DNA of 64,000 nucleotides, taken from Lytechinus pictus. Lineage: Eukaryota. The notes below the pieces were generated by a model that was given only the letters and a program-made list of their open reading frames with translations, was not told the DNA's origin and ran no database searches. Both the position numbers and the translations under genes were made by a program. This document shows, in pieces, positions 17,659 through 63,083 of this stretch. Location of the stretch: assembly GCF_037042905.1 (NCBI RefSeq), contig NC_087251.1, forward strand, positions 31,002,001 to 31,066,000, in the 5' to 3' direction. How positions within the stretch are numbered: position 1 is the first letter of the stretch; every line of letters begins with the position of its first letter.

Positions 17659-17757
17659 CTTACTGATACACACATCCTGTGCTGGTTCATGGATACGAAT
17701 TGTGGCTTTGCCTTCTTGAACAAAGCGCCCAAAGATCTTGACCACATTCCCTTTCAA
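17659..17757 (-). CDS. LRR1: LRR1 exon 2 (N-terminal PH-like domain)
   Basis: LKGNVVKIFGRFVQEGKATIRIHEPAQDVCISK contains the FVxEGKAT motif shared by LRR1/PIF1 N-termini. 99 nt, cag/gtgag boundaries. Confidence 0.92.
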
Positions 17758-25461: not shown

Positions 25462-25531
25462 TTTAGTTACTACAGTATGTTAACCAAGCTAGAAAACTTG
25501 TGAGACTGGCTACTAAGAATATTTTCTCAAG

Positions 25532-26431: not shown

Positions 26432-28301
26432 TTAAATTTGTTATCAATGACATTTCGTGGAATGTGGTCTAACAAACTAAATCTGTGGATACCGTTGCCG
26501 TCTGAAGGGAGATGTTTGTTAAATTTCTGAACAATTGCAAACTATCATGGGCACAAGGGATGCTTACATGTAGGCCTAGTTCATTTCAGACGTTCAAAGA
26601 ATATCAGTATTCCTATTGAACAAAGTGTGGCGTAGATATTTAAATACATATGATATTTTAAATTTCAAGGATATGAATAAATCTTGATTGGCTGTGAATA
26701 GTGATATCCCGATATTTTAATCTTTAGGATTGACTTTATAATCAAAATATTTTCTAATTCAAATCTTGTGGTTTTATAATCGACAAGAATTCAATCTATA
26801 TCAAATATTCGACTGTCACTATATATTCACATCCGAACTGGATTAATTTCAAATCTTCGGAATTTAGAGAGTATATATATAGGCCTACGATAACAAACAA
26901 TTTTTATTCCAAGAGTTAAAATGCAGCAAGAACTGCACATCACTATAGTATGTACCCCCCCCTTTATTATAATTTAACGATAATATAATGAAATAATAAT
27001 TTTCTGAAAGAGCACAGGTGTTTGTGGTGGTTTTCTTTAATGATAATAAGAATATAGTATTGGTGAAGATGATAGTAATGGGTATGTTTAGAAATCTGGA
27101 ATAATTTCTTGTCAGAAGGGGACCAACACCACTGAGCAAATGTCGGAAGCGCACTTCCCCCACGCTACCCCCAGGCGTTTAATCGGGGCTACAAAGGCGT
27201 AATGTATACCCCTTCACCCTTGATTGAAAAACAAAATGCTCTCGTTATGTAACTCAGATCTGGAAGCTGTAATCAATCCTCTCTCTTTCGGCATGCTAAA
27301 AGGCATACACGATAGGGCGGAAAGAGAGAAGATAGAGATAGAACCAGGAGGAGGAGGTGTTGGGTGACAGAGTAACAAAACGGTCACACACCCAAGTTCA
27401 CTCTTATGCTATATTCGCACACCTTTTTCCCATAATCACTCAAAACGTATTCGCGCAAGAATGTTTCCCATATGATTTCATATCATCCCTCTTCATAATT
27501 ATACTCTAGAGGTCTGCTTGGAGGCAAATGATCGCTGTTTTATTTTTATATCACCACAACAGGTAAAAAAATGAGGGATTTTGCGGTAATATGAATTAAT
27601 AAAGTCGATCTTTTTTTGTGCTTTTTTTTTCTTCAATTCCTGCCTGTTTATTTCAAAATTACCATGAATTGATAAAACAGGGCAAGATCGTGTTAAATTG
27701 CAAAAAAAATGAAAAGTCGCAAGATTGGGAAACAGAGTATTGGCGCAGTTTTTTTTTTCAAAGCACCCTTTGCCCCCCCCCCCCCCCCAGAAAAAGGGAG
27801 ACAGTTATAACACAAGCGAAAATAAAAGGCAAGAGAAAGTAAAAGATCGAAATTAACATTGGAGTTTTCACGCTTTGCGAGGAGATTGGTTGCTCCTGTT
27901 CCCAACTTTGCTAACAGATCATGTGTGTGAGAATGTGGGATGATAGAAAAAATCAGGGGGAAAAAACTCTTCATTCTGACATGCGGGAGCCTCAGCTGGA
28001 GCTAGCTCGTAAATTTTGGCGAAGTCCTGTCCTCCTTGCTTGGAATTGACCAATGAGAATCGTTCCCTCTGATTTCCATTCACGGTACTCGATGCTGATT
28101 GGATTTATCATCTGACAAGATCTCCTTCATTATCACGAGCGTTGTTTACAAAACCACTGGAGCGTAATGCGCGCCAGTCGATTAGGGGGATTATCTCAAC
28201 TTCTCAAGTGGATGTTTCCAAAATATTAAACAAGTCTGGTCCCTGGGGTTAAAGTTGTCAATGAAGGAGATGTGGGCAGGAAAGGGTTTTCATATGTGTT
28301 A

Positions 28302-36480: not shown

Positions 36481-38654
36481 TTAACTATAGCAATGATCGA
36501 AGGTCATTTTGTCTCGCGTAAAATTTGACAATTTTTTTATAAAGTTGTCACTAAAAAGAAGGTCATTTTTTCCACCATTGATTATATTTGGCAAGCCCCC
36601 AACCCCCACCCCCATAAAAAAAGTTTGTCCCTAAAAGTGATGTATAGAAAGTCATATTGTTAATTTGTTCCCAGTAAAATTTTGAATTTGGCAATTAAAA
36701 AAAAAGGCAAAAAAGAGAAAAGAATATGAACGAAATATCCCCATTACAAATAATGCTGTACGTGATTCTCATGAGGGGGGGGGGGCACATAACTAGTATT
36801 AATAACATATTTAATTCCAAAATGTTTACTATAAATCTCAAAAGGGGGAACGGGCAGAAATGCTCACCCCAACCCCCCCCTCCCCCCCCCCCCCCCCCCC
36901 CGCCACTGATTCCAATCAATAATGACTTTTCTCTGCAATACTGATGCTTTGAAATCAAGATACTGAAGATTGATACGCTTAACATAAATTATGAACGTCT
37001 GACAAAAAGATAACCAACCGATCACCTGACCGATCAGCTGACCAGTACGCGTATCACTTCGGAGTTGATCACTCGTCGCAGCTGTGTGGAACGCTCACCG
37101 AAAATCAACAAAAAGGGCCTGAAATGTAAGTTTAACAATAATCGATTTTAATTTCAACTATTTTTACAACTAAATAAAGGTTTGCCGTCCGAATGAAAGG
37201 TATATCGGATAACTCTAACTTGTATTAAGGTGTACATTTACCAAAGTCTTGGGTTGGAAATCAGAACAGCATTGTCCAACCCATAATTTGGGTAATGTCG
37301 CCTATGAGGTCCATACATGTTAATGTTTGGACCTCATTGGTACTAGGAGTGGTGTAGGTAGGCTTACTCTCCATGTCATGAAGCCTGGTTCGGTTAGCCA
37401 TTGGTCTATACACACCGTAGGTTTTCCCACGGTGAAACTAGACCTAAATCACACGTTTTGCTTAGTTAGGATTTGAGGTAGCCCAAACTAAAGTACATGG
37501 GCCAAAACAATATTAACCCCCCAAATTTAATATGTTTGTATATTTTATTCAATAAATAGTAGGGCCTAGTAAATATGAAAAATAATTAAGAGCACGAGCG
37601 TTGACTTACCCAGTCTGTTTTCGTCGCCGTCTTGATGTCTTTGTTATCGATACCTAGATAGCACACGTGTGTATAGACAGGAATAACCGTCATTTCTGGC
37701 ATTTTACTAGTTTTACTATCATCCCCATTCACCGACGGTAGTGTGCTAGTGTGAGCCTGCATGTGTAATCATTTCTTCCAATTCGGGGGACCGGGTTTGT
37801 CTATATATATATTTTTTTAAATTCTAAATGACATTATAAATTTATATTATCTTGAACGAAGACCCACTTTTTTCGTTAGACTCTAATCTTTCTTTTGATA
37901 ATATAAACATTTATGATTTATTCCTTATTTTTTTAAATTTCTGCCGGAGAGGAAAAAATGGCAGCCGTGTGTTGCTGCCCTATATACGTTCAACGAGTTG
38001 TGCTTTTGTCAAGGCTTTCCGATTAAATTTTCGATATCCTGGCCAATCAATGCGAGCGACAAGTTCCGAGCGCACGCATATCAACAAGCGCAAAGCAGCG
38101 GCACAAATCGCGATATGTAGCGACTGGTAAATACGTCTGTAAGGATGGTGACGTCATCCAAGATGGCAACTTACGTTGACCAACGAAAGGATCGAAGATG
38201 ACTATGTTTTGATCATCATTTGAAAGGCATTGGCGGTAACTGCGGTCTAAGGTACAATATTTTTTAATTTTGTATATTTTTCGTAAATTTGATGTAATAA
38301 TTTTTTCATAATGTGACATTTTATGCACAAAAAAATGATCCGAAAATCAGGTTTCAGCCGAATGTTAGATCTAACATAACTGCTAATACGTTGTCTATAC
38401 GTACAGCCCTCCAAGCTCTTCAGTCTATGTATGTAAAAAATACTTGCATTGGCCGATAAATATCATGAATCGTAAAATACTTGCATCGGTCGATTAATAT
38501 CATAAAGCAATTTTCACAGAAATTCCATATAACTTCTGAATAAGTAGCAAAATAGATCATGTATGTGCCGAAAACTACATAGACGAAATGGTACCTCGCT
38601 CCACTGTATGTCGCATGGACATGCGCACACACGTAGTGTACTCATCTTGTGTGT

Positions 38655-39152
38655 TACCTCGAGCGATGTTCGTGCAGGCTCCACTCCACTTCACTACCGC
38701 TACACTACGCTCCACCTACCTGAACATCGAGACGGTGAACCAGTTCGGATATACCGAGTCACAAAGGTGGGATGGAAATCATGTTTATCGTAAAATTTAA
38801 AGAAAAAAAATATAACGAGAAAAGATGAATAACTTTAAAATATCTTAATCTACAACCGTATTTCACTCCGTTTCTATCCTCCGGTTATCCTCAAAATTGG
38901 TGATTTTGGGCCAGTATCTTTTTCCTCACACGTATTATTCACCGCTGATTTCAAAACATTGCATGCGATCACGATCGGTCGCAGGTCAAAACGATATTTT
39001 TTTTCTTTAATTTTTACGATAAACATGATTTCCATCCCACCTTTGTGACTCGGTATATCCAAACTGGTTCACCGTCTCGATGTTCGGGTAGGTGGAGCGT
39101 AGTGTAGCGGTAGTGAAGTGGAGTGGAGTCTGCACGAACATCGCTCGAGGTA
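38655..39152. mobile_element. Foldback element with ~165-bp TIRs and near-perfect 9-bp TSD
   Basis: TACCTCGAGCGATGTTCGTGCAG mirrored at the right end. Flanks CTTGTGTGT / CTCGTGTGT. Confidence 0.88.
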
Positions 39153-42100
39153 CTCGTGTGTAAACATCTTCGTGCGCTAGCGAAAATCCATGGAATTCAT
39201 AATGCAAGCCTGTAGCTACATGTACATGCTTCATTATGCCTTGGGCGTGCCCTGCACATGTTTTTACAACCATACAACGAAACTTCAACAATTCAAGTTT
39301 CGAAAATGATCAATAAATTTTGACCCATTCGAACCCAACATTTATAAAATGAGAAAAGAATGTGGCGAAACGTGAAATGAGCTATCAGAATTTCTGAATT
39401 ATTGGGGCGGTTTCAAGGTCAGTTGCATTACACTTTTATGTGTTTATTCTAATACTTGGTGCTATTATTATGATCAATTATGATAACCCTTTGTATTTAT
39501 GAACTTCCATATGAGTTTAATAGAAAATTTTGGTCTAGATCTAAAATAGAGCCAATATAATTTTTTGGAAAATATCTGCTTGATTCAGAGATTTAAAAAG
39601 ACATAGCTATAAACAAAAATTATTTTCTTAAAAAGCTGAGACAGGTTTACTTGAATGGCTTCTTGTAACTTGGTTGCAATTGTAGTGTTTATAGATGAAG
39701 TTACATGTATCTTGTATTTTGTATTATTCCATGTAGGCACCAGCCAATGTGGAGAACCTCTCAACAGAATTTTCAATTCTTTTAGGTGATCCCCAGGCAT
39801 TGGCTGGTGCTCAATTTTACATTTCTTTTGTAATGTTTCTATTGCTGTCATGCTTTCTTGCCTGGAAATGAAATAAACAAATAAATAAATAAATAAAATT
39901 TTAGTTTGGGACATGCGATCACAATCAGAGACACTACAAGCCGAAGACTGGATACTTTGGCAAATCTGTATACACTAAACAAGTGTCCAGTCTTCTCGTA
40001 TTGGGTCTTGGTTATGTTGCTAGCAATAATTGTCATTAATTGTTTGAAGGAATTATTTTCATGGAATGTTTTTTTTTTTTTAATGAGTAAGCACATATAC
40101 ACTGTATGTGCTATGGCTGCCCTGTATCACTGTTTGTGCAAGGATTGTGAAGTATTGTGTATGATGAAGATGCAGAGTATTCATAATAAACTTTTGTTGT
40201 TGTTTTGATCTCATACTACTGTACCAGGGTAATGCAAAGTGCAAATGTTGAAAATACAGAAGATGATGGTGTGAATCAAACTGATTATGATGTAACATAA
40301 TAATATTTTACTGTAACAGTATAGCCTTTAACAATGATAATAATAATAAAAGTAATAATAATAAAGATAATGATTATAATAAAATACACCCCCCCCCAAA
40401 AAAAAAATGAACAAACCAAAGGAGAAATACAAAAGCAATGATTTTTAGTGCTTTTATATCCTGTCTTAAGTTTGGTAAATCCCCCCCCCCAAAAAAAAAA
40501 AAAATAGATGCACCTTTCATTATTCCAATTCATAACTTCATGTAGCTACTGTGAATATGCCCTAAAAGAGTTATGATGTGGCGGATATGAAATGAAAATG
40601 CCTTTATATTTAGGATAAATTTTGCAATTTTATATGAAATTCTGATTTGATTTGGTGCCCTATCAAAGTAAAATATTTGTGTTTTTGTTTTTATTTCTAT
40701 ATAAAATGTATTCTTAGGCATGGAATAGGCTGAAACTTTCAGGATATATATATTGTATTTTTTGTCTCTATCTTTCGAATATCCAATCGCTATTAAAATT
40801 TATCAGATACATGTAAGTACATGTAAGTGCTAGAGTGCATGAGATTGTTACCGCAATGGGCATTCAATTTTTTCTAGATGAAAGCTTTGAAGACAAAAAA
40901 ATAAAGGAAGTGGATATGTTCAAAGAAAGAAGAGTGGAAAATGTGAGGGGTCTATGTGAAATGAAGATTCCCATTTTAGATAAGATGTGAAAAATAAAAT
41001 ATATGAAAATTCAGTCCTTTAATAGGAGTGACTGTTTGAAATTCAAAATGAATAGTGGGATGGATTTATTTGAATACTGCAAAAAAGTAATTTTACTGTA
41101 GGCAATTCCACATGATAAAAAACGATCACCTTATTTTATGTTAATAGTACCAACAATTCAATTTATAGCCTTGATACCCAAATCTTTGGATTAAACTAAA
41201 AAATATACTGTACAAACTGGAATTTTGCCATGGTGATGATTGTCAGTGTTTTTATGTACATTTTGTTCAATCTTTTAATACGGTATTGCTCTGTGAAAAT
41301 ATCTTTATGTTCTGGTAGGTCCATTTGTCCATTACCATGGATACATACATGTACAACAATGTCATGAATGTAAGAATTAAACGTTAGAATCTAAGAATGG
41401 GGTGAAATACAAGACATATTTTACTCACATTCCATGATGAAATTGAAAGCAAGAGACGAAACAGGCACAGGATCCCTATTATGTTGATAAAGGAATTAGG
41501 TTGCTCATTTAAGATTGTCCATATAACTCCCTGATAATGTTGTATTGTATGAGATATTTTGATACATCAAGTTGGTTATCAGGGTTTGCAATAAAGTATC
41601 CCTCTATTATACATGTATGTCTTCTAATGTAATATTTTGGCAATTTTGTATGGAGTATTATGTTCTTTTGTGTGTTTTTTTCAATGGGTGTTATTCTGTA
41701 TTTGAAATGACATGGATCCCCTGCAGGGCAGGTGAACTAGATACGCACACTACTCGCCTTACAATGTCAACATCATTATCACGATGGACTGACATTTTGC
41801 AGTATCACAGTGTCATTTATTATGCAATGTAAAGCACACCTTGCCTTCAAGAGCATACACATGTAACTCCAAGATTTAAAATAGCGCCTGGAAGAAAAAC
41901 ATAGGAGATTGACAGAAAAGGGTTAATATAAAAAAGGATGGTCTTAATAAAAAAACAGTATGATATCTACTCTTAACTCCCTGATATAGATGAGAAAGAA
42001 ACCTACACTACGTTTACATAAAGTAGCATTGATGTGAATTTTATTCTTGTATTTTTATTCTTTCTGAGTGATTTTCAAAGAAAATTGTATCCTTTCATTT

Positions 42101-43107
42101 TTTTCTGACTTTCATTGACTTTTGCTTGCTATTTATAACAACCAAAGTTTTAATATTTTGATAATTATAATACTCAGTTATGGTAAAATTTAGGATGAAA
42201 TTGTGGGATGGCCTTGAATTATGGTTTACTTGATGCATACATGTAATGTATAATGAGGAGATTGAGAAAAACTTAAAGTGAATGTTGTGAGTCATTGACA
42301 TTGGTTGTGTTTCTGTTATTTTTCAATATTCAGTATTATTTCTAATACACACAAGTACTTGTAGCCGGTATTTGGGACATGCACTATGTGTACATATCAC
42401 CTGCACCCACTGTAAAATTGTCGGCACTGGGCTACTTCAAACAAGAAGCAAATTGGCAGTAATGGAGTCTGGGCATTCATTCCCATGATATCCTGTCATC
42501 AGCGTTAACCTGACTCCTGTATAATTTTCTGCCTTCATTACATACATGTAGTTGACATTTACCAAGCCTGGAGGGAGAGAAAAAAATAAAACAACCCCTA
42601 ACCTGTATTGTATGTCATTACACTTTTAAAATAAAATGGTCCACTCCACATTACATGGTAAAGTGGCTAGGTTGTGATGGTAGTTTAAATCTGTTTAGTG
42701 CTGCTGATGCTGTAGATATATCTGTTGAATTGTAATTATGATAATTGCTGCCCCCTTGGAAGCTCACCTGTGCAGGTGTATGATCCATCTAATAGGTCAG
42801 TGGGACAGTGACCGAAAGACAAGAACTCATTAAATTACATGTACTTTCTTCTTTTACATGTAGGTACTGTAACTTCAAAATGGCAACAACAACAAAATTA
42901 AAAAAGAAAAAAAGAGGGAGGAGAAAAAACAACAAAACCTGTGGAGAGTCATGATGCTGTGTGTATTTTTTTTTGGGGGGGATGGGAAGTAAATTTCTTT
43001 AAATCTACATTCTTCATGGCAAACATATGTGCAATTGTGCGTGTACATGTTACTGTTCGATTGAAGAGAAGTGAATGATTAGGGGCCTAGATATTCATTG
43101 TAATCAC

Positions 43108-43637
43108 CCGGGGGGGGGGGGGGGGGGCACTCAGTATATAATGCATAGTGGGTATGTGCCGCGGAGGGGACCCAATTATTACACTCAAATTTCCGTTCCA
43201 AGGCACAGCATTTTTGTCTTATTGAGAAAAAGAACAAAGAAAGCCGCTCCAAAGCATAAGATTTTCTTCTTATCGTGAAAAAAGAAGAAAGAAATCCGCT
43301 CCAAAGCTTCGCATATTTTCCGTTACGCCGTTCCAGTCGCATTTATCTCCTACAATGAGCCGCAATTTTGGTGAAAAGTGGTCGCAGAGCGCTGTCCGAC
43401 TATCGTCTCTGCGCTAGCGCACCCGGATGCCCGTTCCATAGGGATGCATACGCACTCACATGCAGGCGACCCGTTCCAAGGACCCCCGTTTTCACAAACA
43501 TTTGTAGCTCTGAAGCCCGTTCCGAGGACCCTCCTTTTTACAATAAGCCCGCTCCAAGGCCCCCGTTTTTGGCCTTGCCCGCGGCACATACCTACTACTT
43601 TTTTTGGTCGAGTGCCCCCCCCCCCCCCCCCCCCCGG
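43108..43637. mobile_element. Non-autonomous DNA element with poly-G/poly-C TIRs and 8-bp TSD
   Basis: GTAATCAC|CCG(n)CACTC ... GAGTGC(n)GG|GTAATCAC. Internal ccgttcca/ccgctcca subrepeats. A related degraded copy lies at ~54830-55247. Confidence 0.85.
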
Positions 43638-44294
43638 GTAATCACACTGTTTATATAAAATTGTAGGCTCTGAAAATTTGGTTTGAATTGAAAACAGGAA
43701 TTTTAGGGATTTCCCCATGTTTAGGCCTTTCAGGAGGAAGTTTATCTTTTTGATATATCCCCTTCTAGAAATCAAAGGTCTGTGTATGCACAAATATGAA
43801 TAGAGCTACAAATGTTATGAGAAGTGCAATGGCTCAAAGCAAAATCTGAATTATACAAATTAGTACTGACTGATATAACCACCGTGATTGTTTAAAATTT
43901 TGTTTGTAGGCCTATTCTAATGTCTGAAATACAGGTATTATCTTTCTTGGAATACTCAATAGAAATTAACAGTGTTGTCAGAGAAATTATGTTTTAATGT
44001 AAGTACTTACTTCATTATGTAAAATTATGATCATCCATTTTGGGCATGCCAACTACATCATGTATGTCAAGAAAAGCGAAGGAAATAACCAATTGCATTG
44101 GACAGGTGTGGCTTTTGTTGAATAGTCCTACCACCCATGGTTTAACATGGAATTCATCATGTCTCTCATTTATAAAGCTCAACTTTGATTATGAATGAAT
44201 ATTGTTTTAGACAGAGAGTTTAAGGCTATGCAGGGAGCCCCTGACGCCCCTAAGACTCTCAGTTTAATGTGCATTAAATGTATTTACACAAAAT

Positions 44295-44711
44295 AGGCGG
44301 TGCTGCACCAGCCTGAGTTTGCTCAATCTCGAGATTTTAGCCCGATCAGCCCTCTTCACGATTAATCTCGAGATTCAAGAAACCCCATCTCCACCAGCGC
44401 AAGAAGAGCAATTTGTGCTCGAGCGGGGCATGAATGCATTATGGTCTGATGCTGTGAATAAATAATAACGAGTCAAATCTCGGGTGCGTCTGCACCTGGG
44501 AATTAGCGGGATAATTCATAAATAGGGCACTATTTTGCAAATAATCCCAAGTTGACTTTAATAGGATTGCAAGCTCGAGATTAATCCAGCGAACTATTGC
44601 GATGATTACGTCTCAATTACAAATAATCTTGAGATTGTTCAGATTGGGATAATTTGCCGGATCAGAAACAGCACTATTATTTTTGAAAACTCGGGCTGGT
44701 GCTGATAGGCC
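44295..44711. mobile_element. MITE
   Basis: GCACCAGCCTGAGTTT / AAACTCGGGCTGGTGC inverted termini and internal atctcgagat subrepeats. Confidence 0.6.
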
Positions 44712-44854
44712 TCATGTGAAACCGAGGAAAATACAAGGGTTGTGCAAAATTAGGCTTGATTTTAAAAGCTCCGGATTTCTCAGGGAATTCTTTGAATTAA
44801 TACCTTTTTTGTACCATGTCTCACCTTTTTACTTTCCCTCTCCGTAACATGGCA

Positions 44855-45054
44855 AAGGAGAAGTTCACCCTGACTATATTATATTCATGATAATATATTT
44901 GGGGGAGCTGCTCGCATATGACATCACACATTTAAAAATCTGTAACTTTCTTATTCTCTGATGGATTCTCATCAAACCTTTACCAATTTTTTCTCTATTT
45001 TTTCTGCCTTTATTTGAAATCAACAAATATAGACAGGGTAAACTTCCCCTTTAA
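44855..45054. mobile_element. Internally deleted copy of the 26006-26431 TTAA MITE family
   Basis: aaaggagaagttcaccctg ... cagggtaaacttcccctttaa. Confidence 0.65.
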
Positions 45055-48000
45055 AGAAACATTCATTCTTCCTCTCTGGAGTCGACAAACTTGTGATGTT
45101 GGAATAGGAAGTGCATGAAAGTCACCGTTCCACTTTGAACTTGTGACTGCTCGTCCTATATTTATTTTCTTATCACCATTTGTACAAGATGTCTTCTCAA
45201 GATTGTACAATACAGGTTAAGAGCTAATCAAGATAAGTGATATTACCTCACGCTTCTGTGATTCGTTATTACCTGCCTGGTTTAGATATGAAATCTTAAC
45301 CAGTTGAAGTGTTGAACCATTGAAGTTCATGGCTCAACTTGGGCTGACATTTTGTGTGTTTATGTAATACATGCACCACTAAAGTGCTCTTCATCATGAG
45401 ATTCTTGTGAGTTTACTAAATTCATTTCCTATAGCACACACTGTGAGGGAGAACTAAAAAATTAAGAAAGTATATATACATGTATTTATTTCACCAAACA
45501 ATGAATTCCAAGCGCAGTGAAGAATAAGGATTTTAGATAATAATCACTAGAGCAATCAGAGAGATCCCAGGAAAATTGTAGTGTTTAAATGATATTTGTA
45601 ATCACTTTGAGAGAGAAACACTGATGAATGCATATATGTACATTGTAGACTATACTTGTAGACACAATTCATTAGAGGTACAAAATGTTCAGAAAGCAGG
45701 GGGTTTTTTTGGGGGGGTTGATATAAATTCAAGGGAACAGGTATTATAGAGCACAAGTTAAACTTCCCTCATGTAACCACCTTCAGGGTCCCTAAGGCTT
45801 AACACAATCGAATATTAAATCGTACCGAATATTAAATCGTACGCTTGATTTTTACGATTGATCGTACATTGTAGTCAATGGAATCAATTGTAGAAAAATG
45901 TTCTACGATCATTGCTAAGCTTTGTGTTACAGGCCCCAGGTCATGCTCTTGTAATAAGCCATCAATTGCATATGGAATATATCTGCCGTCAGGAAATAAA
46001 AGCAATATTAGACTTATTCCAGGTTTAATAAATTCTTGACCTCAGAATTCCATTCCAAGCTTCAGCATATTTGACCTTTTGACCTTTCTATGCAAGGTCA
46101 AGTTATCTTGGCCAAGCTACAGGTTGTTTATAATTGTATGGATGGGGCATTTGACTTATTGCTTCTTTTTTTACATTTGAAACCCGCTTGTTTTTTTTTC
46201 AAAGATTAAGTAACCATGTGGTTCATTTAGTTTGATTTTGATCTCTTGTGAAGAGCTACAATCTAGGTTCACGTTAAACAGTGCATGAAGCTTAAATTTA
46301 GGGCATCCAATAAACGTGTGAAGAAAGAGAGGACATTGTTTAATGGAGAAATGGATGGAAAGATCAAGCTATCCCATGAGCTCATTGGTTTGAAGCCGGT
46401 GAAAGTAAGGGGCAGGGATCACGATGCATGTTTATTGTTGGGGGCATTCACGTGAGCGGGCGCATTGGTTGTAGATGAGAGAGAAATTGGATGGGGGATT
46501 TGAGATTCTGTTTCATTAGTGGGGAGCAGAGGAATGACAGGATAGTATTGAGCTTTGTTGAATGATTTTAAATTGGTTCTTGTGTACATGTATATGGGTC
46601 CTTCATGGATGCACAATCTGAAGGTTAGTTGTTACAAGAATTGTTTATCACATGGGATACTTGACTTACTGTGAGGTCACTGTACTCTGGTATGTTACAC
46701 ATTAAAGAGATTTTGGTATTCATATAGGCCTATTGTACAAGTATACCGGTACGTTATGTAGACTACCTGTACTCTTGAGAAGTAGAGATAACATGTTGAA
46801 GTATGTTTGAATATATTTTTATGTTGTGTGTTTATGTGAACTATTTTTTAATACAACTTTATTAAGATCAAAGCACAATTGGTATAGGTAGTATTAAAGT
46901 GAGTACACGTGTATTTCAGACTCTGAATAATAGTTGTTAGACATCCTCGAAGGTTAACAAAACACCAGCACCAGTTGAATAAACACAATTTTAGCCGGAG
47001 AAATACGATTGTCAAAGATGTTAAGTTCTAACCATGGTTGAGATCCATCATTGTTTCATCGATATTCAAAAAAATCTTTCAAACTGCAGATTTAAAACCC
47101 TGAAAAGGATGTAGTATCTGTGTTTAGTAGTGTATTATGATTTTGATTCATGTTTCAGATTTTAGCCTAAAATTAAATTTGATTTAATGCGCCCTAAAAT
47201 AATGTGTATACATGTACATGTAGACCTATAGTACATGTACCTGAATAATGGATGTCATATCCATATTCACACTTGATGAGTAAATTTTACCTCAATGGCA
47301 TTCATCTCGATATCTTGCAGGCAATGTAATTGGCAAATTGCTTTATTTTCTTTAATGGTACTAATTGGAAGAAGCAGTGCTTAGTTTTTTTTGCAGGCTT
47401 GTCAGGTATCAGAAGCTCTAATTATCTAATTAATGAGTTAGTAGTAATCTTTAATTCACAGAAGCATAATAGTGATCTCTGACAAGTCAATAAGTGTATT
47501 AATGATCTCTGACAAGCAATTAATGCAGATGTGGTTTGAATCATTTCATGAATAAAACAAGTTTTCAAAGACAGTTAAAGCCAGAGGTTGATTTATTCTG
47601 AAGAAAAAATTGAAAAAGCAGTTTTGACTCCAGTCAGTTGACACTGTTATTATAATTTAGCATTTAGGTTTAAATGTAGATCTTTATCATCTTGAAAAAT
47701 GTAAATTTATCAATTTCAGTCTTGAGTTGCTGTTTCTTTAATTTTGTATGCTGTCAAGTGACAATGCAAACCATTACTTGTAATTGAATCAAATATTTCA
47801 TCAAATACAAGCTATTTATAATACACAAGCTGTATATGTATTTCCCCCCTCTTGACTTAAGTTGCCCGTGCTGTTTCATCTTTGTTTCATCATTATCGTC
47901 ATCGTGGAATTAAAATTACAATTACATCAACCCAACATTTAAGTTCAGAATTTCATTAAAATGATTACATTATGTATACATCTGGAAACCTGTTGCATCA

Positions 48001-48528
48001 TACTTCTGTATGAATTTTATTATTGACATGAGTTGCTCTCATGAAATATTAACATGATTTACACTCATGAACCATTTTGACGTACCTTGTACCTATCAGA
48101 GTGATGAAAGCATGATAGCCTGGAAGATGCATATTTGCCCAACTTAAATGCCTACAGAAATGAACGTGAGGTCATGCATGTGCATACATTCAAGGTCTTA
48201 CAATCGATAACATACATGTATGTGGCCATGGAAACATATCTTATACGTGAATGAACATGGTAATCAATTCAGACAAAACACTCACTGTTATCGACTAATG
48301 TATGTACTCTATACTCAGGAATGTTCATATTATACTACAATGTATATTAAAGAGAAAGCCAACCGTTTGTTGTACATTATTATGCAGAAAAAAATATGTG
48401 GAGGATTAGGAGAATGGTGTACATGTATATTGAATTATTTAATTGTAGAAGAAGATCAACTTCAATAAAAAAAAAATCACTATTTTGCTTTTAATACATT
48501 GAATATTTTCATCTTTTCTAATATGCAG

Positions 48529-48649
48529 GATAGTTTCACTGTGGTTTCAGAGAGAAAAAAGCAATTTCCTGCCGATATTACATGTACCAGATCATAAGCT
48601 CATCATCGAAGAATGGAGCAGAATGTTGATGTATACATAAAGTATACAG
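48529..48649 (+). other. Candidate non-coding 5'-UTR exon of BTBD7
   Basis: Pyrimidine tract, ctaat branch-like motif and tgcag acceptor, then a consensus CAG|gtaagt donor 121 nt later. No recognisable protein. Confidence 0.45.
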
Positions 48650-48739
48650 GTAAGTGTTTCTATCCATTGTGTATATTTTTAATACTCATTGTTTTTTCCC
48701 TGATGTTGTTTGTTCCCCCTGGGATCAGCACCCCCCCCC

Positions 48740-48895
48740 CCCCCGTTTCATAAAGGACTGTTGTAACTTTGCCATTATGGCAACTACCATGGAAACCTTG
48801 ATTATGATTGGCTGTTGAGCCCTGTTACCATGGTACATGTAGTTGCCATAATGTCAAAGTTACAACAGTTGCAAGTTCTTTATGAAACGGGCCCC
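48740..48895. mobile_element. Harbinger-like MITE
   Basis: cccgtttcataaag...ctgttgtaactttgccattatggcaactaccatgg mirrored by ccatgg(tacatg)tagttgccataatgtcaaagttacaacag...ctttatgaaacggg. Confidence 0.75.
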
Positions 48896-49879
48896 AGACC
48901 TTTTCATGGTTTAAATCTGCAAATGACACATCATGTACTGATATCCCACATTAAATTGATGTGCTTCGGATCAACATTCCTATTGTTTTTACAGGTATAT
49001 TGCAGCTATTAATATTGTTTCAGCTACATGTACTATGGTACATGTAGTAGAGTGTAGGACTTTTTATATAAAAACACATAAATCATGCATCCATCCTTTT
49101 CTTATTGTATTGTGGACATGGATTGTCTCTAGTATAAATAAAAAATTATTGAATACCATTTATTGAATAAATTCGGGCAAAAAATGTAATCATTGGGGGT
49201 TCATGTTGAGTTGAATGTCCTATTTTCCCCCACTGATCTATTACTATCTATGCCATTAAATAAAAAAAATCCTATTTTCCGACAAAACATTTGTGCCCTG
49301 TACCATAATGCTAAGCAATTGATTGCAGAGCTGATTCTTACAATTGACAATACCTATTAATCAATACAATTAATTGTAGAAATTAGTGTCACAATTAATT
49401 TCTAAGCTTTATGTTACGAGGTCATGCACTTCATTTAGCAGTAGCCAGTAATGTTACATGTATGTATGAGAATGTTGGTGTGCAGGCAACCATAAGGAAT
49501 GGAAGCTTGCACACAGGTAAATCAGGGCTGAAATTGGCTGGAAATGGTTATCGCATGGCAGACGAAGCGTGGTTCCACTCACGAGACCTGCAACTGACTG
49601 CAAGGCATATGGGAGACAATATTTATGATTTATGTGCCAGATAAGTCTGCAGTTTTATCTGCAAATCTGGAAGAATGAAAAGTATTTCCATATTGCACAA
49701 ATGTTGTTTTTCGATTTCAGACAGGAACTATGGTGGCTTAGGTTGCATTCAAGTGATTTTTATGGGCTAGAGTCATAAACATGCTGAATCAATAATCAGA
49801 CAGTGATGAATATAACATTGATAACTCTGATTATAATGATAAAACTGATAAATTATAGGCCCAATACTAAGTAATGAAA

Positions 49880-49960
49880 AATAAAATAATAATAATAACA
49901 ATAACAATAATAATAATAATAATAATAATAATATAACAATAATAATAGTGATAATAATCT
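49880..49960. repeat. (AAT/AAC)n microsatellite
   Basis: aataataat run. Confidence 0.9.
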
Positions 49961-52900
49961 GTATGATGATGAATATGGTGATCATAGTCATCAATACTAG
50001 TGATCTTGATGTTGATGATGTAAATTGAGCTTTTTTTATTTGATGTTGATTGTATTTTTATGTAAATGATTGTAAAGGGTTATGCAATTCGGCTTTTCAG
50101 CCGCTATAAATACCCTTGTTGAAATAAACCGTTTTAAATAAATAAATCAATAAATAAATACTGACAATAATCACAATAATACCAACCCATGTTAGTCAAA
50201 ATGTCTGATTGACTTTATTAATTATTCAATCTTGGTGAAGAAGCAATTCATTAAAGACGGTAATGTACCTGTGAATGATGGTCATTAAAAGGACATTAGT
50301 CATTAGGCTTCATTTGTTTTGAAGGTAAATTCAATTGTATAGTCACACATTTCTAATAGCTTGATTGTAATTCCTAAAAATGTCTTTGGGTGCGTTTAGG
50401 CTTCACTGATTGAATGAGAGTAGTGATGGGTTATATTGGTTTCTGGTGCAAAGCTTGTGTTACAATAGGGAGGCTATGACTCACCCACAGGCTTGGAAAA
50501 CCCTTTACTAATTAAGTTCCCGCAAAATTTCAACATTGTGGAGTAGCAGAGAGTGTCCATTTTGGCAGATTATGCAGCAAGATTTTATAGTCTGAGAAAT
50601 CAAAATGAAAAAGAGGGAAGAGCCAAAGGAAAAAAAAGTGAATTACTTTGAAATAGATTTTCTCTATACATGTACATGTAGGATTGTAGAACAAAAAAGA
50701 GGCAAATGTTAGTTTGTTGTGCATATTACAGTTTACAGTGATTTTACATTTTAATTTGATGACCAGTTATTGGATATTTAAAAAAAGTAGTGAAATTATT
50801 GGTAATTGTTGAATTTTTATAACACTATAAAGAGTGTATTATTAAAATTTAACACATTTATTACAGAATGTTTTATTTATTCATTTTATTTTCTCAAGCC
50901 AACCTAAACCATTTTTCCCCCTTTTTTTTATTATATTTTTCATAGAATCATACATGTAGGTCTTTCTTACTCCCAATTTGTTGTTTTAACCTGATACCCA
51001 AAGTTAGCTCTGATACTTAACCCACTGGAGACTGGCTGACATACATGTAATGTATAACATGCAGTCTCCATACACTCAACCCCTCATATATATTTTGTGC
51101 TCAATATTCAACGGGTTAATTCATTTACGTTATCCATCCAGATTGTCATCAGATACATGTAGATTGGCAGTAGAGATTCTGTATTAACAGGGAAGGAAAA
51201 TTAGGATTTTTTTCTTTTTATCAAGGCATGCATCATCAATTCATTCATTCAAATGAAGTGTAATGTGACAGATAAAAGGATGACTCACAGTTTAACCAAG
51301 CCAGCCCACAAATTAGTATGCAAATGCAAGCAGGCAACTCACATACATTCTGGTCGACTGAAATTGGGAGAAAGACCTTTTTGATGAAATCACAGACAAC
51401 CAACATACTGCGGATATTCCGGTTTTCTTTACAAATCATTTTATGACAGAACTTTCATTTTGTTCCATATTCTTTGTATTAAAAAACACACTAGTCAGGT
51501 AAATGAAAAAAACACATACACAGAGCAGCACTGAAGAATATACAGTTAATCTTGATATTGGTAGAGAAGTAGGCAATATTCCCTCCAACCTTAATATTGA
51601 AGTTTGGTTGTTTTTCTTTTATCAAGTGAAACATTTTTTTTTTACATTTTGCTTTCTGAAGGGCTAGTAGAAATGAGTGAAGTTGTACTAATACATGTAT
51701 TTTTTTTCTTTCATGTATACTTAAAATTCATCTTCATTACACATGCCCACATTTAATGATAAGAATAATACATAAAGCTTTATAATATGTTTTTTTTTTG
51801 TTAACACACTTCAGGCTACATACATGTAAAGCACTAACTATAATTTTGAATATTCTCTTCTAACTTTACAAGTGTGTACTCATCTAAAACAAAAGGAAAT
51901 CTATAGGGCCTATACGTTTCTCAGCTCTTTAATAGACATGCCTTAAAAAAAAAACCAGGTTGGTGTGCATGTGTTGACCAAAATATAGATGCATCTAAAA
52001 ATCTAGGCCTATGGAAAAAAATGATAGTATTGTATGTCACACGAAACAAACTTAATATTAATAAAGGGAAACTAGAATCTATAGAGATTGCTATGAAGAA
52101 ATAAATATTAAACAAATAACAAATTTAAGATATAGAATTTTTTTCTCTCACAAGTATTTCTGCACATGTAACATAATATTGTAATAGTGCAAGGATAGGG
52201 AAACATTAGCCGTCTGGAGTTCATTCAATGCTACAGATAAATGTATAAACACATTAGAGTGTAATTTAACCTTTACAACCTTAAAATGGGCCAATGTCAC
52301 TCTTCAATAAACGCCTCTTCATCCCGGAAATGGGCTTAATATATTGAGACAAGGAATACCACGCTATAAAAAGATTTCACATTGACGCATCCATACATTT
52401 TCTAATGATCATACCCACTGCCTTTCATAATTCATGAAGAACAGTCATAGCATAATCTGAACAGCTTTTAAGTTGCTATGGCGATCGTGCAACAGGTGTA
52501 TTTGAAAGTGTGAAACTCATGACCTGCCTCTCATTCGCATACCGTAATTTAAAGTGTAGTAGTATTGCTGAATGCATTTGAGAAAATTGAGTGGATTGAG
52601 CCAAATTATTAACATTGATTATTCACTCATGTAGATGAGAAGTTTCTCTACTGATTCATGTTATATTCTCATGTTTTTAGTTTAATGAATAGGCTTATAA
52701 TTTTCAAGTCCTCTGTGATGCAAAATCTTCATTGGTATCAGATTAAATGTTTTCAGTTCAACCTCAAAGTTCAGTTTTAATTCTGATTAAAAAGCAGCAA
52801 AATTAACCATGAATCTATCACATTGTACGTATAAAGTGGAGTTTAATTTTTCAATGAACAATGAAAATGAAATTGTAAGAAAAAAATCATTGCCTTGCTG

Positions 52901-54040
52901 GCATAAGGGCGATAGCTCAAGGCAAGTGTGCACTACACAAGATGTACAGTGCGAGAGTAACACCTTTCTGCCTGACAAACAGGAATGGAAATTGACATGG
53001 AAATGATGGAATATCCTAACACGTTATAAGAGAACTATAATATTTGTATTGGTTTAACTTTGAAATTTGACGCTCGATTATTTATAGCATATAAACTGAT
53101 AGTGAAACCTCCATATGTTGTTTTGATGCTCTAAAATATCAAAAATATTTTCTTTATTTCTTGAATTTTTTTATAGGTAATGCTTACATGCAGAAATGTA
53201 AAGAGGTTTCATGTGACCAATTGTGAATTTTTTCTTTCTTTTTCACATTCCTAAGAAGTAATTTGCTTGAAATACCATACAATTACACATCAGACAAAAT
53301 GGGAGTTGTTAAAAATTAAAATTTGGTTATGGAAAATTGATCATTTGTCAGCAAAGAAATTCAAAAGATTTTTCCATCTTGTAGACGTTTATTATGCATG
53401 GACAAAATACCAAATACTTCCATAACCTAATTCAATTCCTTGTTGGCTTGTTGCATTATGCATCTTCTCTACCACCCACCCCCCCCCCCCCCTTCCAAAA
53501 AAAAGAAGAAAATAGTGATTCATGTTTTCCCCATCTCATTTTCCCTTTTATTTGCAAAAGATACATGTACAGTCCTGTATGGGACACAGCTGTCACAATG
53601 CAAACACATATTCTGTCTGAATGTTTCCCCTGGGTAAAAACTACATGTACCTCAATCTCCGCATCTCTGTACTTCTAGCCTATTTTCTAAATGGCATGGC
53701 AAAGGTCCCCTGTCTATATTGCTTTTTGAGAGAATCTTCCAGTCTGGAAAAATTGATGAGATCAATTTCGTCCGCCTCCTCAAAAATTAAATGATATTCC
53801 TTTAACCCATTGAATACTGCATGTGGTTTTTGCCTTTCAATTTTTAATGCTCAGTGTTTGGTTCATGCTTATGATCTGAGGCCTACATGTAGTTCCTAGT
53901 CATATTTTCATGAAAAATAATCTACCTGTACATGTATGTACTTGTTAAAATTTATTGGCTGCAGGTTATATTTTGGTATGACGTATTTCAAAATTGAAAG
54001 AAGAATAACTTTCCTGAAACTAATAATATGACACCATAAA

Positions 54041-54789
54041 TAGGGACAGTGATTTTCCGCGATCGCAGAAAATGGACAGAATGCACGGAAATTGCCTTTT
54101 GAAATGGAAAGTGGCATTTGAAACAGAAATCACAGAAAACATATTTTTCCTCAGAATACACAGAACAGCAACAGAAATTACTCAAAAATCTCAACAAATT
54201 ATGAATATTAAATGGCCACAAAACCTCACGAAACACAATCGCACTTCACTACAATCATGACAATCCACACATCGTGACTGCTCTTGACTCCATCACACTC
54301 GATCGTACCCATTGTCCCTGGCCCTAATTGCCGGCGCGGCCAGCGGGGTCGGCCGTATCAAAAACATTCACACATGGTTTGATTTCAACAACACGGTCGT
54401 GTGTTGCTGCCCTTTACGTTTGAAGATGTAACAGCACGATGTCCCGGTCTTGAAATCCAAAATGGCGGATAGACCGAAGTCATTGACTGCTCAAAACGAT
54501 GTCCAAAAAAACCCAAAATTATCGATAAAATTTCATTCAACCATAAAATACTTATAATGTGAAAGGTGAGGATGTATTAATGTTAAATGTGTTTGTCAAA
54601 AAATTGTATGTACCCGCATAGATCCGATTAGAGCGGATTCTACTGCATTGTTGGTACAGTGGCATATACAAACGGAATTGCCACTTTTTTATGTACGGTA
54701 CACAAAGTCTATGGGGAAGCGGAATTTCTGTTTTCTGACATGCTGAAACGGAATTTACGATTTTCTGAAACGGAAAATCACTGTCCCTA
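54041..54789. mobile_element. hAT-like non-autonomous element
   Basis: Perfect 19-bp TIR TAGGGACAGTGATTTTCCG, (a)cggaa subterminal repeats, 6-bp flanking direct repeat CATAAA. Confidence 0.85.
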
Positions 54790-56305
54790 CATAAAATAAT
54801 GCAAAATACTGTATTTCAGTAGCCTAAATTTCCGTTCCAGAGCATCACCAATTCAGGCAGCCACAGAGATTCCCATTTTTCCCGTTCCGGAGACCCTCAA
54901 ACTTATTTCTCGCTCCAGAGAACGCCCATCATGATCTACTCAGCCGGTCAGAGTAGCAAGGTCGATCAGCGCGGAGCCCATATGTTGGCCCGCCGAAGCT
55001 CCCCTTACCCGCAGCTAGCTTGCGCCGATGTTTTTTTACATAGCCGCTACCGATTACGCCTACGATCTAATGAGTTCCGGAGACCCCCGTTTTTTATGTG
55101 GTCCGTTCCAGAGCATTGTATATTTAGCAATCGTTGATCCAAGAGACCCTCATTTTAAGACCAAGATTTAGTTCCAGAGCCCCCTATTTTCGAGTTGGCC
55201 AGCACAGGTATCATGTTATAATTCAAGTACCCCCCCCCCCCCCCGGAACTTATCTTTCAATTCTAATTTTGTTTCTGTAAGATGTAGGCCTAAATATTCT
55301 TGAAAGACCAACGTAAAGTGAAAGTGGAGCTACTAGCCTCGGATGACCATTGTAGAAAGAGTGACATTGACCATACCTTAAAAAAAAAGAAATTCTCAAA
55401 AATGCATGCATATGATTGGTTGATTGATCAAGTTGCATTTGATTTTTTTTTTAGGATTTAGTTTGATTGCAGCTCTTTCTACATCAGGCCCCTGTATTTT
55501 GTTGGTTGTGTTGTCCAGAGTTTCCAGACTTGGACATCGGTAGCCCACGGATCTCTTCAAAAGATAAAAGGGAAACAAATTTGCCTTCCACTCTTCGCAT
55601 GCTCAACATTATGCATACCAGGCATATCTATATACCATTGTACAGATGTATGTCTGCTGGCTGTCTGTCTTTTTTTTTTTTTTTTGAAAGAGATCATGTG
55701 GAAAAGCCATTGACATGCCTTCCTGTAGAAGCTTGAATGAGGATCAAAGTCCTTGGGTGACAGCTGAATCAAACCCAGTGGAATGAATGGTGGAAAGAAA
55801 CCCCCATCCAAAGATATGAATCTCTGACATCCCATGTATGGATCCATATTTCATTACAGTCTGCCTTTAATATTGATGGTGTAGATCGGTACTTCTAGAT
55901 ACTGTTCTTTCTGAGAAATAGCTGCTTCATGTATATATTTAAAGCCGTTTCCTAAAGGATCATTATTCTGAATTTTTTTTTCCATTTGAAGGCTTATATT
56001 TTTCAAAGGTTTGGTTGTTCTGAAGGTTCGGTAGCCTGAGGTTCTTTATTTATAAGTATAGAGTCCATTATCGCAAAGTTTTGTTGATAGAAAAATGCTA
56101 CATGTTTTTTTTTTTTTCGGGGGACACTTTCACAACCTACAGGCTAAATCTGCAATATTGGAGAAGCTTCCATTGCAGTGAATGGAGATTTTCTAGGGCT
56201 GTGTTTTATTTACCAGGGCTCTTTTTTACCATTTCGGTGGCGAAATTACCCTGAGACCCCATACAATTATTCCTCTGCATTGATACTGTAGGTCTAATCA
56301 TCTTA

Positions 56306-57017
56306 GGGTGTGTTCAATGTCGATTTTCAAATTTAATGAGCAACATGAATCATGAGGCGCGATAGCTCAGTCGGTAGAGCGGGGGTTTCGGATTCCGGTG
56401 ACCCGGGTTCGATTCCCACGTGGTGCGCTAGTGCCCTTTGGTAAGGCATTTATCCTCATTACCAGGTCCCTCGGAGAGGACCTTAAGCCGTCGGTCCTCT
56501 GGTTGCTTGCTCACAGGCATTCGTGCTTTCTTAGCAGTCAGGTAAAAAAACCTCGGTATAACATGATTTGGTATACATGATTGAAAACTCAATTGCAAAA
56601 CACTGAACACAAACACATGCACTGTTCAGTGTCGAGAATATAAAGCCGTTTATATGTTGATTGTCTTTAAATTTCACGCTTTCGTTTGCGCAGTTTGACC
56701 CATCACAAGAAAGGTCAGTTCTGGCACCTGTTTGTGTAGCCATCCACTGCGAGAGCAAATTTAAAGAGGTTTCAAAACTCGATTGTTTTCAATGTCGCAT
56801 TCGCGATACGCAAGGTCGTAAAATTTAAGCTGATCACGTTTTTACAAACGCATCTTTTTTTACATTTAAATTTTCCTCCGAATCATGATTTGAAAGACTT
56901 ATAACGGAATAGAGGACATTGAACACACCCTTTGTTTCTCATATGTGTCTTGTAATCACGTTTTCAATCATGATCCATGTTGCCGTTTGAATTTGGAAAC
57001 TGACATTGAACACGCCC
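56306..57017. mobile_element. Harbinger-like non-autonomous element carrying a nested SINE
   Basis: TTA|GGGTGTGTTCAATGTC ... GACATTGAACACGCCC|TAA, with a second internal TIR copy near 56915-56931. Confidence 0.7.
56355..56550 (+). mobile_element. tRNA-derived SINE
   Basis: Pol III A box TAGCTCAGTCGG and B box GGTTCGATTCC, no proper tRNA acceptor stem, ~120-bp unrelated body and a short A tail. Confidence 0.8.
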
Positions 57018-60000: not shown

Positions 60001-61151
60001 GGCTACCAGGCTCATACACTCTCTTCCGTTTCATCTCCGGGGCTTTGTTATTCCTTCAACTCCAAAAAAGAAATGAAATGGAGTCGGTGTATCCCTGTAT
60101 TTCATGATTGGTGAAATGGTATGATCTATCTACCAATTCTCAATTTGCAGTCCGATGCTTCTTCAATGCATTGGCCTTCATGTGTCAGAAGTCATTGTTT
60201 TTACACCCAAAGTATATTTTCTTTAAAGAAACACTTGTGCATGGACTTGTAATGTGCAAAAAAACTAAAGAACTAAAAAGAATGTTTAATTGCTTTACAG
60301 TTCTTTACAAAAATAGGAAAACTAATCTCTAAAGGTACCCCAAAAATGTATTGAATTGTAAAATATCAAAAAGGATGTGTAGAGATGAATGACTTTATAA
60401 AGATTTGTTTCATATAAATCTTTCTTCTTTTCTTGTCTCCAATGAATAAGATATTCACTACTTTTGCTGTTTATTTGTCAGACTGCCTCCTGTCCTCTTT
60501 GCATAACTAGCTTTATTTGTTTGTCATGCTGTCCTGTTCGTGGATTTTTCCTGTCCCATTAAATTGAATGATTGATTACAAGCATCTATGTTTATATACA
60601 GTCATGGGGGTACAGAGACTGGAAAATTACCCCCAATCTTCACTAACATGCTTGAAATCTGTGTCCATTATTTTTATGGTTGTCGCTGTTTAACTCTCGG
60701 AACAAGATAATTGATTGAATACTGTTCTTCTTTTTTTCTGTCTCCCCCTTTTCTGTGTGCAGGTCAGCAATGAGTCATGGAGAAGTCGACTTGATATTGA
60801 TCAAGCTCTCAGCCTGTGTCAGGTTGTAAAACACTCCATTCAGAGTTGCTGATCTTGGACTGAACCCAGAGTCATATTGCTCAGAAGTTAGTCATCGTGT
60901 TTCACCAAACTTTTGTTGGCTACACTTAAAGATTTTAACGGAGCTGTGCCATCAAATACACAATTGAAAAGGCAATACTGCTTAGAGGAAAATTGTCAGA
61001 TGCATCAGCCATAATTACAAAAGCGTTGTTTTTTGGCTTGAGACTTGTTAGCACTGAATGAACAAAAGTTACCATGCTTTTGATTATATCCATTGATTTC
61101 TGGGAATGAGACAAAATGTAAACTGTGATATTTATAGTGAGTTGATAAACA

Positions 61152-62337
61152 ATGGGAAGTAACCCTTCAAGTCATAAGGACTCTGGTGAGTCCGCGAGAG
61201 AGGAAGGAAGCACTGCAAGGGATCATTCAAGCACGATGTATCCCACTTCACTTCATGGACACCTAGGAGATGAGGTCTTAGAACCTCCAAGCCAAACGTT
61301 GCCATCTCCTGCAAAAGTGGACAAAGTGAAAAAGAAGAAGCCCCCAAGCTTTTCCTCCTTAAAGAGGAGAATTGTGAGAAGAAAGACTGCTGGTAAGTTT
61401 CAGGATCATGCTCGTTCTATACGGGATCTCATAGTAACATGGAATCCTCTGGATGTTTGCTCACTTATCGAGGAATACGATGCTCTTGCAGCTCTCAAGG
61501 AGATCACCATTCAGACAGACTTGGCTAGGACATCAGCATCACCACTGAAAAATGATCTGTTGCAGCTTTTTAATAGTAAAAACTGTGCAGATGTGAATTT
61601 GCTTTACAAAGGATCAACATTCCCAGCTCATCGTGCCATACTTTCTGCGAGATGCAGTTTCTTTAGAGAACTCTTACGGAGAAACCCAACCGTAGGTGCA
61701 GAGGTTCCAGTGGACCTTGGTTGGTCGGGGGTAACAGTGAACATGTTTGCTTCATTACTCAGATACCTGTATACGGGAGAGTTCAACACCCAAGATTCGC
61801 AATTAGAAAACTTTGATGTATTGATCCGATTAGGAGAGCGATTTGGAACGCCGAATGCACTTGAGCATGACTTCAGGATGTTACTGGATACAGGCAATTA
61901 TGGAGATGCTGCACTTGTGTTTTCTTGCGATACTGAATCAGTTGGAGTAACTCGTGCTGTGGAGGCATCGAGGACATCTGTTGGGAGTTCTGTTAAGTGC
62001 CATAAAGCTATCTTGTCCGCAAGATCACCATTCTTTCGGAGTGTTCTCCAGAGGAGACACCAGCAGAGCAGTGACTCTACTACAAGGACGTTGCCAAGCA
62101 TTACACCCATTGTACTTGATGAGTCAGTCATACCCAAGAAGTATGTTCATGTACTGTTGTATGCCCTTTATCAGGATGTAGTGGATTTAAGCCTTGTCTT
62201 GCCAGACAGTCCTAGTGTTGGAAGCCTTGGAGAAGCCCAAGCTATGGCATCAGGAAGGACACCACTTACCAAGGTTGAACAGGCCATGGAGTTGTATCAG
62301 ATCGCAAGATTCCTTGATTTTGCAACTATGGCTCATG
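61152..62337 (+). CDS. BTBD7: BTBD7 first coding exon (two BTB/POZ domains)
   Basis: MGSNPS...SLKRRIVRRK...DHARSIRDLI...EEYDALAALKE...FPAHRAILSARC...CHKAILSARSPFF resembles BTBD7. gtaag donor at 62338. The exon probably begins at the acceptor ending 60762. Confidence 0.92.
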
Positions 62338-62874
62338 GTAAGAAAAACAAATCAGAATGAAAATCCCGAATAGTCATTAGTAATCAGTTCATTCTATATT
62401 AAAAAATTGATTTTACTTTGGTTAATGTATTGTCTATAAGAATAAACCAAATATTTACAATCTAAAAAAAAATGATATGTGTAAATTACTACTTGCTCAG
62501 ACTTCCAAGAAAAAGTTTATTTTATATGAAATGCCCATCTTAAAAATGTTGAGAACTTTGTTCATTGTTAAAATATCAAATTAAAAGTGTAAGCTACTTG
62601 AGTACTAATAATGCATAATTTGCACCGAGAATGGAGCTGATGAAATTAAATGTTACATTAAGTCTTGGCCAGTGGATAACTTTGTATTTTTTTTTTCTCA
62701 TGATCAATTATGAACATTGAGGAATTGGATTTATTGAAATTTGATGAAATAGTCTTTTTGCAGCAGACCAATGATCAACTTTAAATAGTTTCAAAGTGAT
62801 TGTATGTCCATTCATTTGTGTAATGAAAATTGATATCAGTAGTCTTCTTTCAACCCCTTCTAACAACCCTTCAG

Positions 62875-63083
62875 CTTGTGAGGACATCATAGCACGGAGT
62901 ATCACCACAGAGAACCTTGTCTCCATCTTGACTTGGAGTCTAGAACCTCATGGATCTCACTGGGTACATCGGCAGGCTCAGCAGTATCTACAGGAGGAGT
63001 TTGCTGCTGTAGCTGCGTCTCCGGTCCTCTTTGAGCTCCGGGAATCACAACTCATTATGGCTCTCAAGTCAGACTTTCTTCAG
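62875..63083 (+). CDS. BTBD7: BTBD7 second coding exon (BACK region); gene continues beyond the window
   Basis: ACEDIIARSITTENLVSILTWSLEPHGSHWVHRQA...SDFLQ. tcag/gtatg boundaries, phase 1 join. Confidence 0.92.

Follow-up and report, generated by a model that had tools for sequence, protein, structure and literature searches.

A field of TACATGTA octamers in a probable first intron of Lytechinus pictus, likely left by transposon excision

We analyzed a stretch of Lytechinus pictus DNA 64,000 nucleotides in length (contig NC_087251.1, positions 31,002,001 to 31,066,000; hereafter the window) that holds a dense field of the octamer TACATGTA. Coordinates are those of the window, and its features are collected in Table 1. 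The window is about 37% GC, and CpG-poor and CpG-rich blocks alternate along it in a pattern that resembles mosaic-methylated invertebrate DNA. A CpG island (observed/expected ratio, o/e, of 1.44 in 38001-39000) accompanies a candidate promoter and first exon, and the field begins about 1 kb downstream of that exon. The predicted product of the candidate second exon contains two BTB stretches and is probably BTBD7. The field thus probably occupies the first two thirds of a long first intron. The original prediction had named a probable 5′ intron of BTBD7 as the setting; the intron is suggested by the sequence, and the gene name comes from a weak Atlas lead (0.88). A divergent minus-strand transcript may start from the same CpG island (37590-37960, with a donor-like CTTAC near 37606).

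Table 1. Features of the window, with strand and basis where given
Feature	Position	Strand	Basis or remark
Leucine-rich-repeat (LRR) gene, likely LRR1	15780-18650	-	PDB match to LRR1 over longest stretch; upstream exons by eye
hAT transposase, three open frames, BED zinc finger and dimerisation domain	22202-25479	-	
TACATGTA and TAGGCCTA with common TA	26565..26578		Sequence; likewise in metagenome locus L080
Candidate promoter and first non-coding exon	38150..38251	+	CpG island, GT donor 38252
Field of 33 TACATGTA (31 independent sites)	39217..53936		About 2.5-2.7/kb in old CpG-poor DNA
Left sub-field	39217..42862		10 sites in 39001-43000, CpG o/e 0.38
10-bp tandem duplication copying one TACATGTA (40808/40818)	40808..40827		Sequence
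Gap in field	43001..46500		1 site (45477), several high-copy repeats, CpG o/e 0.62
Right sub-field	46585..53936		20 sites in 46501-54000, CpG o/e 0.32
Double unit TA(CATGTA)2	47209..47222		Sequence counts
High-copy palindromic miniature inverted-repeat transposable element (MITE), right arm bearing TACATGTA	48742..48891		Self-BLAST, public runs
TACATGTA as 6-bp insertion at bare TA	48834..48841		Gap versus MITE left arm and other family copies
Second double unit TA(CATGTA)2	50667..50680		Sequence counts
Candidate exon 2, protein with two BTB stretches	60763..62345	+	Polypyrimidine tract, AG 60761-60762, ATG 61152

The octamer is far more common than the base composition of the window predicts. 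There are 39 copies, of which 33 start at 39217-53929, three lie in 1-39000 and three in 54001-64000. Our recount matched the original prediction exactly, both in its 33 field copies and its three copies in the first 39 kb, and all of the coordinates it quoted were right. It had expected fewer than one copy per 15 kb, and Markov models (order 0-5) fitted to sequence outside the region bear this out, with 0.31-0.49 copies expected in 39-54 kb. Models of the same orders trained on the region itself, a background that is inflated by TACATGTA, gave 0.5-16.6, and every one fell below 33. The enrichment persists through Markov order 5, the higher-order check that had been proposed, so we reject a background artefact. 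Dinucleotide shuffles of the whole window (n = 100) had a mean of 1.59 and a maximum of 5 copies. Within the region, TACATGTA is the commonest 8-mer, level with poly-C. The copies represent 37 independent sites in the window (31 in the field), because those at 47209 and 50667 are TA(CATGTA)2. At 47209, either the same TA was probably hit again or the unit slipped.

CATG is over-represented only where TA flanks it. CATG occurs 127 times in the region with TA on both sides in 33, the next 8-mer has 4, and other CATG-centred 8-mers are not raised. One-mismatch variants of TACATGTA are mildly up (22 versus 10.6-16.9 expected). Within the field, 2.9% of TA dinucleotides carry the octamer. Short-range clustering was not significant (5 gaps of 50 bp or less versus 3.0 expected, p = 0.17).

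The field is sharply bounded. Octamer density is 2.5-2.7/kb in 39-43 and 46.5-54 kb and 0.29/kb in the repeat-rich DNA between them (43-46.5 kb). Elsewhere it falls to 0.10/kb in CpG-poor 1-20 kb, 0.05/kb in CpG-rich 20-39 kb and 0.27/kb in CpG-poor 57.1-60.8 kb. The patch has 30 sites per 1042 TA, compared with 2 per 1537 in the equally CpG-poor 1-20 kb (p = 2e-10). CpG depletion goes with the patch, yet it is insufficient alone, and we reject methylation as a sufficient cause, because CpG-poor 1-20 and 57.1-60.8 kb are nearly empty. We also tried the rule that the octamer marks the 5′ part of any transcribed gene, and found no support for it: the LRR gene (approximately 15.8-20 kb, with inferred limits) has zero copies.

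One octamer lies inside a repeat, which allowed its ancestral state to be read. The right arm of the MITE at 48742 has exactly 6 bases more than its own left arm when the two are aligned, and the extra bases fall at 48834. Among other copies of this MITE in four public runs, the 6 letters are absent at 48833 in 46, 46, 25 and 17 contigs, which make up 8-12% of the depth there. In the same runs, 250, 293, 115 and 113 contigs leave the alignment behind 48835 and go on as arm sequence. A minority of the family copies may carry TACATGTA at this position. A search for the filled MITE site in viral contigs gave no matches. The ancestral sequence at 48834 is thus a TA alone, and not a conserved octamer or a precursor with CG. 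A net insertion with the TA duplicated was seen at 1 of the 37 window sites, this one, and in two unrelated metagenome doubles. The addition of CATGTA at a TA thus holds at one window site, and for the other 36 we infer it.

These observations bear on two further explanations of the octamers. Methyl-CpG decay could yield the word from TACGCGTA or from TACACGTA/TACGTGTA. CpG-poor DNA (o/e 0.32-0.38) does hold its copies, and CpG-rich 20-39 kb has almost none. Decay is largely refuted by the indel at 48834 and by the precursors, which number zero in 40-56 kb and two in the whole window. It also fits poorly with the flat counts of other CATG-centred 8-mers and with the near-empty 1-20 kb, and we consider it highly improbable. 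An equally remote explanation is that the word belongs to an unrecognised dispersed repeat or is an assembly artefact. One copy does sit inside a MITE, but self-BLAST gave a repeat match for just one of the 39 copies, and the flanks are unrelated among copies. An artefact is refuted for the seven copies in 40510-42871, a segment that an independent run from organism B (X11 record 8) reproduces with no differences.

We looked for the same insertion in a metagenome set of 119 loci chosen for the doubled motif. Clean 12-bp gaps at a TA separate L060 from L069 and also occur among the tandem units of L021. Other motif-spanning alignments in the set were uninformative or had the motif in both copies. 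Single TACATGTA copies number 73 versus 6.3 expected in 61 of the 119 loci, which measures co-occurrence rather than prevalence since the loci were preselected.

The flanks of the octamers carry a target-site signature. We collapsed each TACATGTA site to TA, giving 37 sites and 74 half-sites, and drew controls from the same region. A at -3 or T at +3 was found in 45 of the 74 half-sites, compared with a fraction of 0.30 in 2422 control half-sites (p = 5.5e-8). The bias persisted without stacked and duplicated halves (38/67, p = 6e-6) and when controls were matched on the two nearer flank bases (45 versus 21.6, z = 6.0). In the metagenome set, 48 single sites from 14 AT-rich, CpG-poor loci show it as well (0.52 versus 0.33, p = 2e-4). 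TACWGTA words in the window, which match the Sleeping Beauty-type scar, have the same bias (20/34, p = 0.003). ANNTANNT with conserved A-3/T+3 is the target preference of Sleeping Beauty and ISY100, according to passages of PMC8934666, PMC2756404 and PMC2831304. The flank bias at the collapsed sites is this ANNTANNT signature of Tc1/mariner transposases, and the window sites conform to the Tc1/mariner preference ANN-TA-NNT.

We favor the reading that the TACATGTA octamers are fixed germline excision scars of TA-targeting, cut-and-paste transposons of the Tc1/mariner type, and we put its probability at roughly 70%. An element would insert at a preferred ANN-TA-NNT site and duplicate the TA. Transposase would later cleave the element a few bases in from its ends, so that the donor DNA keeps 3′ overhangs, and end joining would retain four element bases between two TAs. 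Two routes to CATG can be envisaged. Two 2-nucleotide overhangs could be filled in so that CA and TG are kept, which would work for any CA...TG element and would account for the occurrence of one word in different phyla. Alternatively, an element ending in CATG and cut 4 nucleotides inside would leave a self-annealing 4-nucleotide CATG overhang and hence a uniform scar. A neutral scar would then drift to fixation after the element had gone. As read from the sequence, every scar supplies two new TAs, each with one favorable half-site, which would favor stacking and could have promoted the doubles at 47209 and 50667.

The octamers resemble the footprints of known elements in part. Minos-type elements leave a 6-bp footprint of TA plus 4 terminal nucleotides, a point on which our literature search returned no confirming passage. 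A net gain of 6 bp with four element bases between TAs is shared with this class. A Minos-type origin would require a CATG-ended element, and none with TA flanks was seen in the window, in scans of which one omitted left ends beginning with TACATGTA. The ends of Tc1 read CA...TG, its target is TA, and keeping both 2-nucleotide overhangs could give CA plus TG. The window has a surplus of the +6 class without one of the +4 class, in contrast to the spectrum of C. elegans Tc1. A passage of PMC4490562 describes these Tc1 overhangs as non-complementary 3′ ends and implicates polymerase theta in germline repair in C. elegans. Footprints of 2-4 terminal nucleotides between TAs, with TACAGTA/TACTGTA as the canonical products of Sleeping Beauty, are described in an excerpt of PMC6943129. 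Sleeping Beauty shares with the octamers the terminal element bases kept between two TAs and the A-3 and T+3 of the target. The scar described here differs in being 4 nucleotides long (CATG), palindromic, uniform, germline-fixed and dense, and in having no identified donor.

A second TA-bounded word is also enriched. TAGGCCTA occurs 10 times versus 0.37 expected (19169, 26571, 26880, 30961, 34988, 43907, 46725, 52004, 55285 and 57923), spread over 19-58 kb with CpG-rich DNA included. It may represent a second scar class, from elements with GG...CC ends. The window contains TA-bounded inverted-repeat elements at 56304-57019 (ends GG...CC) and 38655-39152 (ends CC...GG). These two are possible donors of other TA-xxxx-TA words.

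We compared the window with four public runs over 40510-49850, a span that includes 20 of the 39 copies, at 80% likeness, which also drew in high-copy repeats in large numbers. Orthologue calls are based on piece lengths and gap counts; the rows listed were 12 of 260 for indels and 40 of 664 for substitutions. Parity checks on 13 listed pieces were consistent with gaps being counted in letters. The listed pieces of organism A diverge from the window by 3-7%. They resolve 6 of the 20 copies, cover 7 without resolution and leave 7 outside. Length arithmetic indicates that 41610, 46585, 48213 and 49455 are not 6-bp deletions in organism A, and 42836 and 42855 are likely undeleted (net +1 over 169 bp). 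A bare TA in orthologues, the state that the original prediction had proposed looking for, was therefore found at none of the six sites that could be resolved. Run X10, a second organism B haplotype with 1-2% divergence, has lost too few letters for any of six sites (41610, 42238, 42543, 42836, 42855 and 46585) to be empty. Since none of the six sites is empty in organism A, the scars look older than the split of organisms A and B, and excision is not positively confirmed by this comparison. The slight surplus of decayed copies, roughly 2-4% per base by our estimate, fits such an age.

Several features of the runs themselves deserve mention. Relative to the window, X10 record 1 has 7 letters inserted and 1 left out over 41478-42871, which could hide a polymorphic +6 scar, and it lacks 41442-41477. 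Contigs of X10 and X11, which come from one study, have a common end at 42871, just ahead of an A-rich tract, and a DNA run extends past it. The shared contig ends are a weak hint of plus-strand RNA priming, and we did not use them as evidence.

Retention of all six resolvable sites in organism A could also be explained if the first intron were regulatory and selection had kept or added the octamers there as sites of protein binding. The start of the field 1 kb past a CpG-island promoter candidate suits this idea. A paper on an oomycete transcription factor mentions TACATGTA (PMC11134190), and NACC1 binds CATG motifs according to an excerpt of PMC11472053. Retention at 3-7% divergence is, however, expected of neutral sequence that predates the split. 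The word is all-or-none with few one-mismatch variants, it shows no short-range clustering, and its origin inside the MITE was insertional. We regard selected binding sites as improbable.

A number of results weigh against excision scars. No TA-flanked CA...TG inverted-repeat donor was found in the 64 kb, in scans of which one omitted left ends beginning with TACATGTA; the elements that the original prediction had suggested searching for yielded nothing convincing in the window. The metagenome set does contain TA-flanked CA...TG inverted-repeat elements in loci with the doubled motif (L001:1358-1971, L030:3984-4769 and L071:4904-5384), and the best-matching TA-flanked CA elements in these loci begin with CAGT, CACT and CAAT. 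The +4 words TACATA/TATGTA are not enriched (57 versus 66.6 expected) and lack the flank bias (30/104), as does TAGGCCTA (5/18). The typical somatic Tc1 scar is +4 (78%, in a passage of PMC13148408), and germline Tc1 repair in C. elegans is heterogeneous, with 26 products in 103 animals (an excerpt of PMC4490562), unlike the uniform scar in the window. Ten sites in five other motif-rich metagenome loci have no flank bias (0.30 versus 0.37). Gap arithmetic revealed no filled/empty polymorphism in organism A or in the organism B haplotype (0/6 each). Finally, a CATG lies directly upstream of 48834, the one proven insertion, which may reflect local slippage.

An alternative to scars is a transposon-independent insertional process, in which slippage, fold-back or repair from a template at broken TAs writes CATGTA and the word is amplified as a palindromic sink. 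The doubles at 47209 and 50667, the 10-bp duplication at 40808, the CATG beside 48834 and the lack of a donor element are compatible with such a process, as is an excess of TACA/TGTA-stacked halves (5/74 versus 0.4 expected). CATG is nevertheless absent within 10 nucleotides at 31 of the 37 collapsed sites, and its presence nearby at the other 6 compares with 108 of 1257 control TAs (p = 0.09). The A-3/T+3 bias persists without stacked halves. Fold-back should yield many palindromes, and strong enrichment is confined to 2 of the 16 palindromic words of the form TA-xxxx-TA. We consider a transposon-independent process unlikely, although less so than the other alternatives. The footprint field proposed in the original prediction is partly supported: the 6-bp insertion at one TA and the target signature stand in its favor; the missing donor, the lack of +4 enrichment and the lack of an empty orthologue do not.

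If the octamers are excision scars, their crowding also calls for an explanation. About 30 scars with no element left suggest that excision outpaces element fixation or that a single element made many local hops. Such hopping is described for Sleeping Beauty. Our preferred conjecture is that the crowding in 39-54 kb reflects repeated short-range hopping of one element lineage. The full form of this model, in which the patch is the trail of a single transposon lineage moving in short hops along the intron and leaving about 30 identical +6 scars through uniform germline joining, is tentative, and we hold it at well below even odds.

Two other repeats lie in the window. A probably hAT-like element, whose ends read TAGGG...CCCTA and which seems to have a 6-bp target duplication, occupies 54041-54789 at the right edge of the scar field. 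A tandem array at 461-1704 has a 163-bp unit in about 6 copies with 87% matches.

Excision footprints themselves are already known, and they are normally observed one at a time, in experiments. Among the matches listed in a search of the open-access literature, from which subscription journals are mostly absent, we found no account of fixed, dense and uniform fields of TACATGTA or TAGGCCTA scars. Neither the uniformity of the +6 scar nor its sharp patchiness is yet accounted for by known Tc1/mariner biology. A fixed field over about 3% of TA sites would allow transposition to be counted and mapped after its elements had vanished, and insertion preference, local hopping in nature and the germline repair route to be measured. 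It would also carry a warning that intronic words such as TACATGTA, when picked up by motif discovery, can have a mutational origin instead of a regulatory role. If a single lineage did walk along the intron, the scars would point to a uniform germline joining route unlike the mixed repair of C. elegans. Fields of TACATGTA, TAGGCCTA and TACWGTA would then preserve, across the genome, a fossil record of cut-and-paste activity that has vanished. Such activity, at about 3% of TAs in hot patches, would be a major but overlooked origin of short indels in the genomes of sea-urchin-like, coral-like and other marine organisms.

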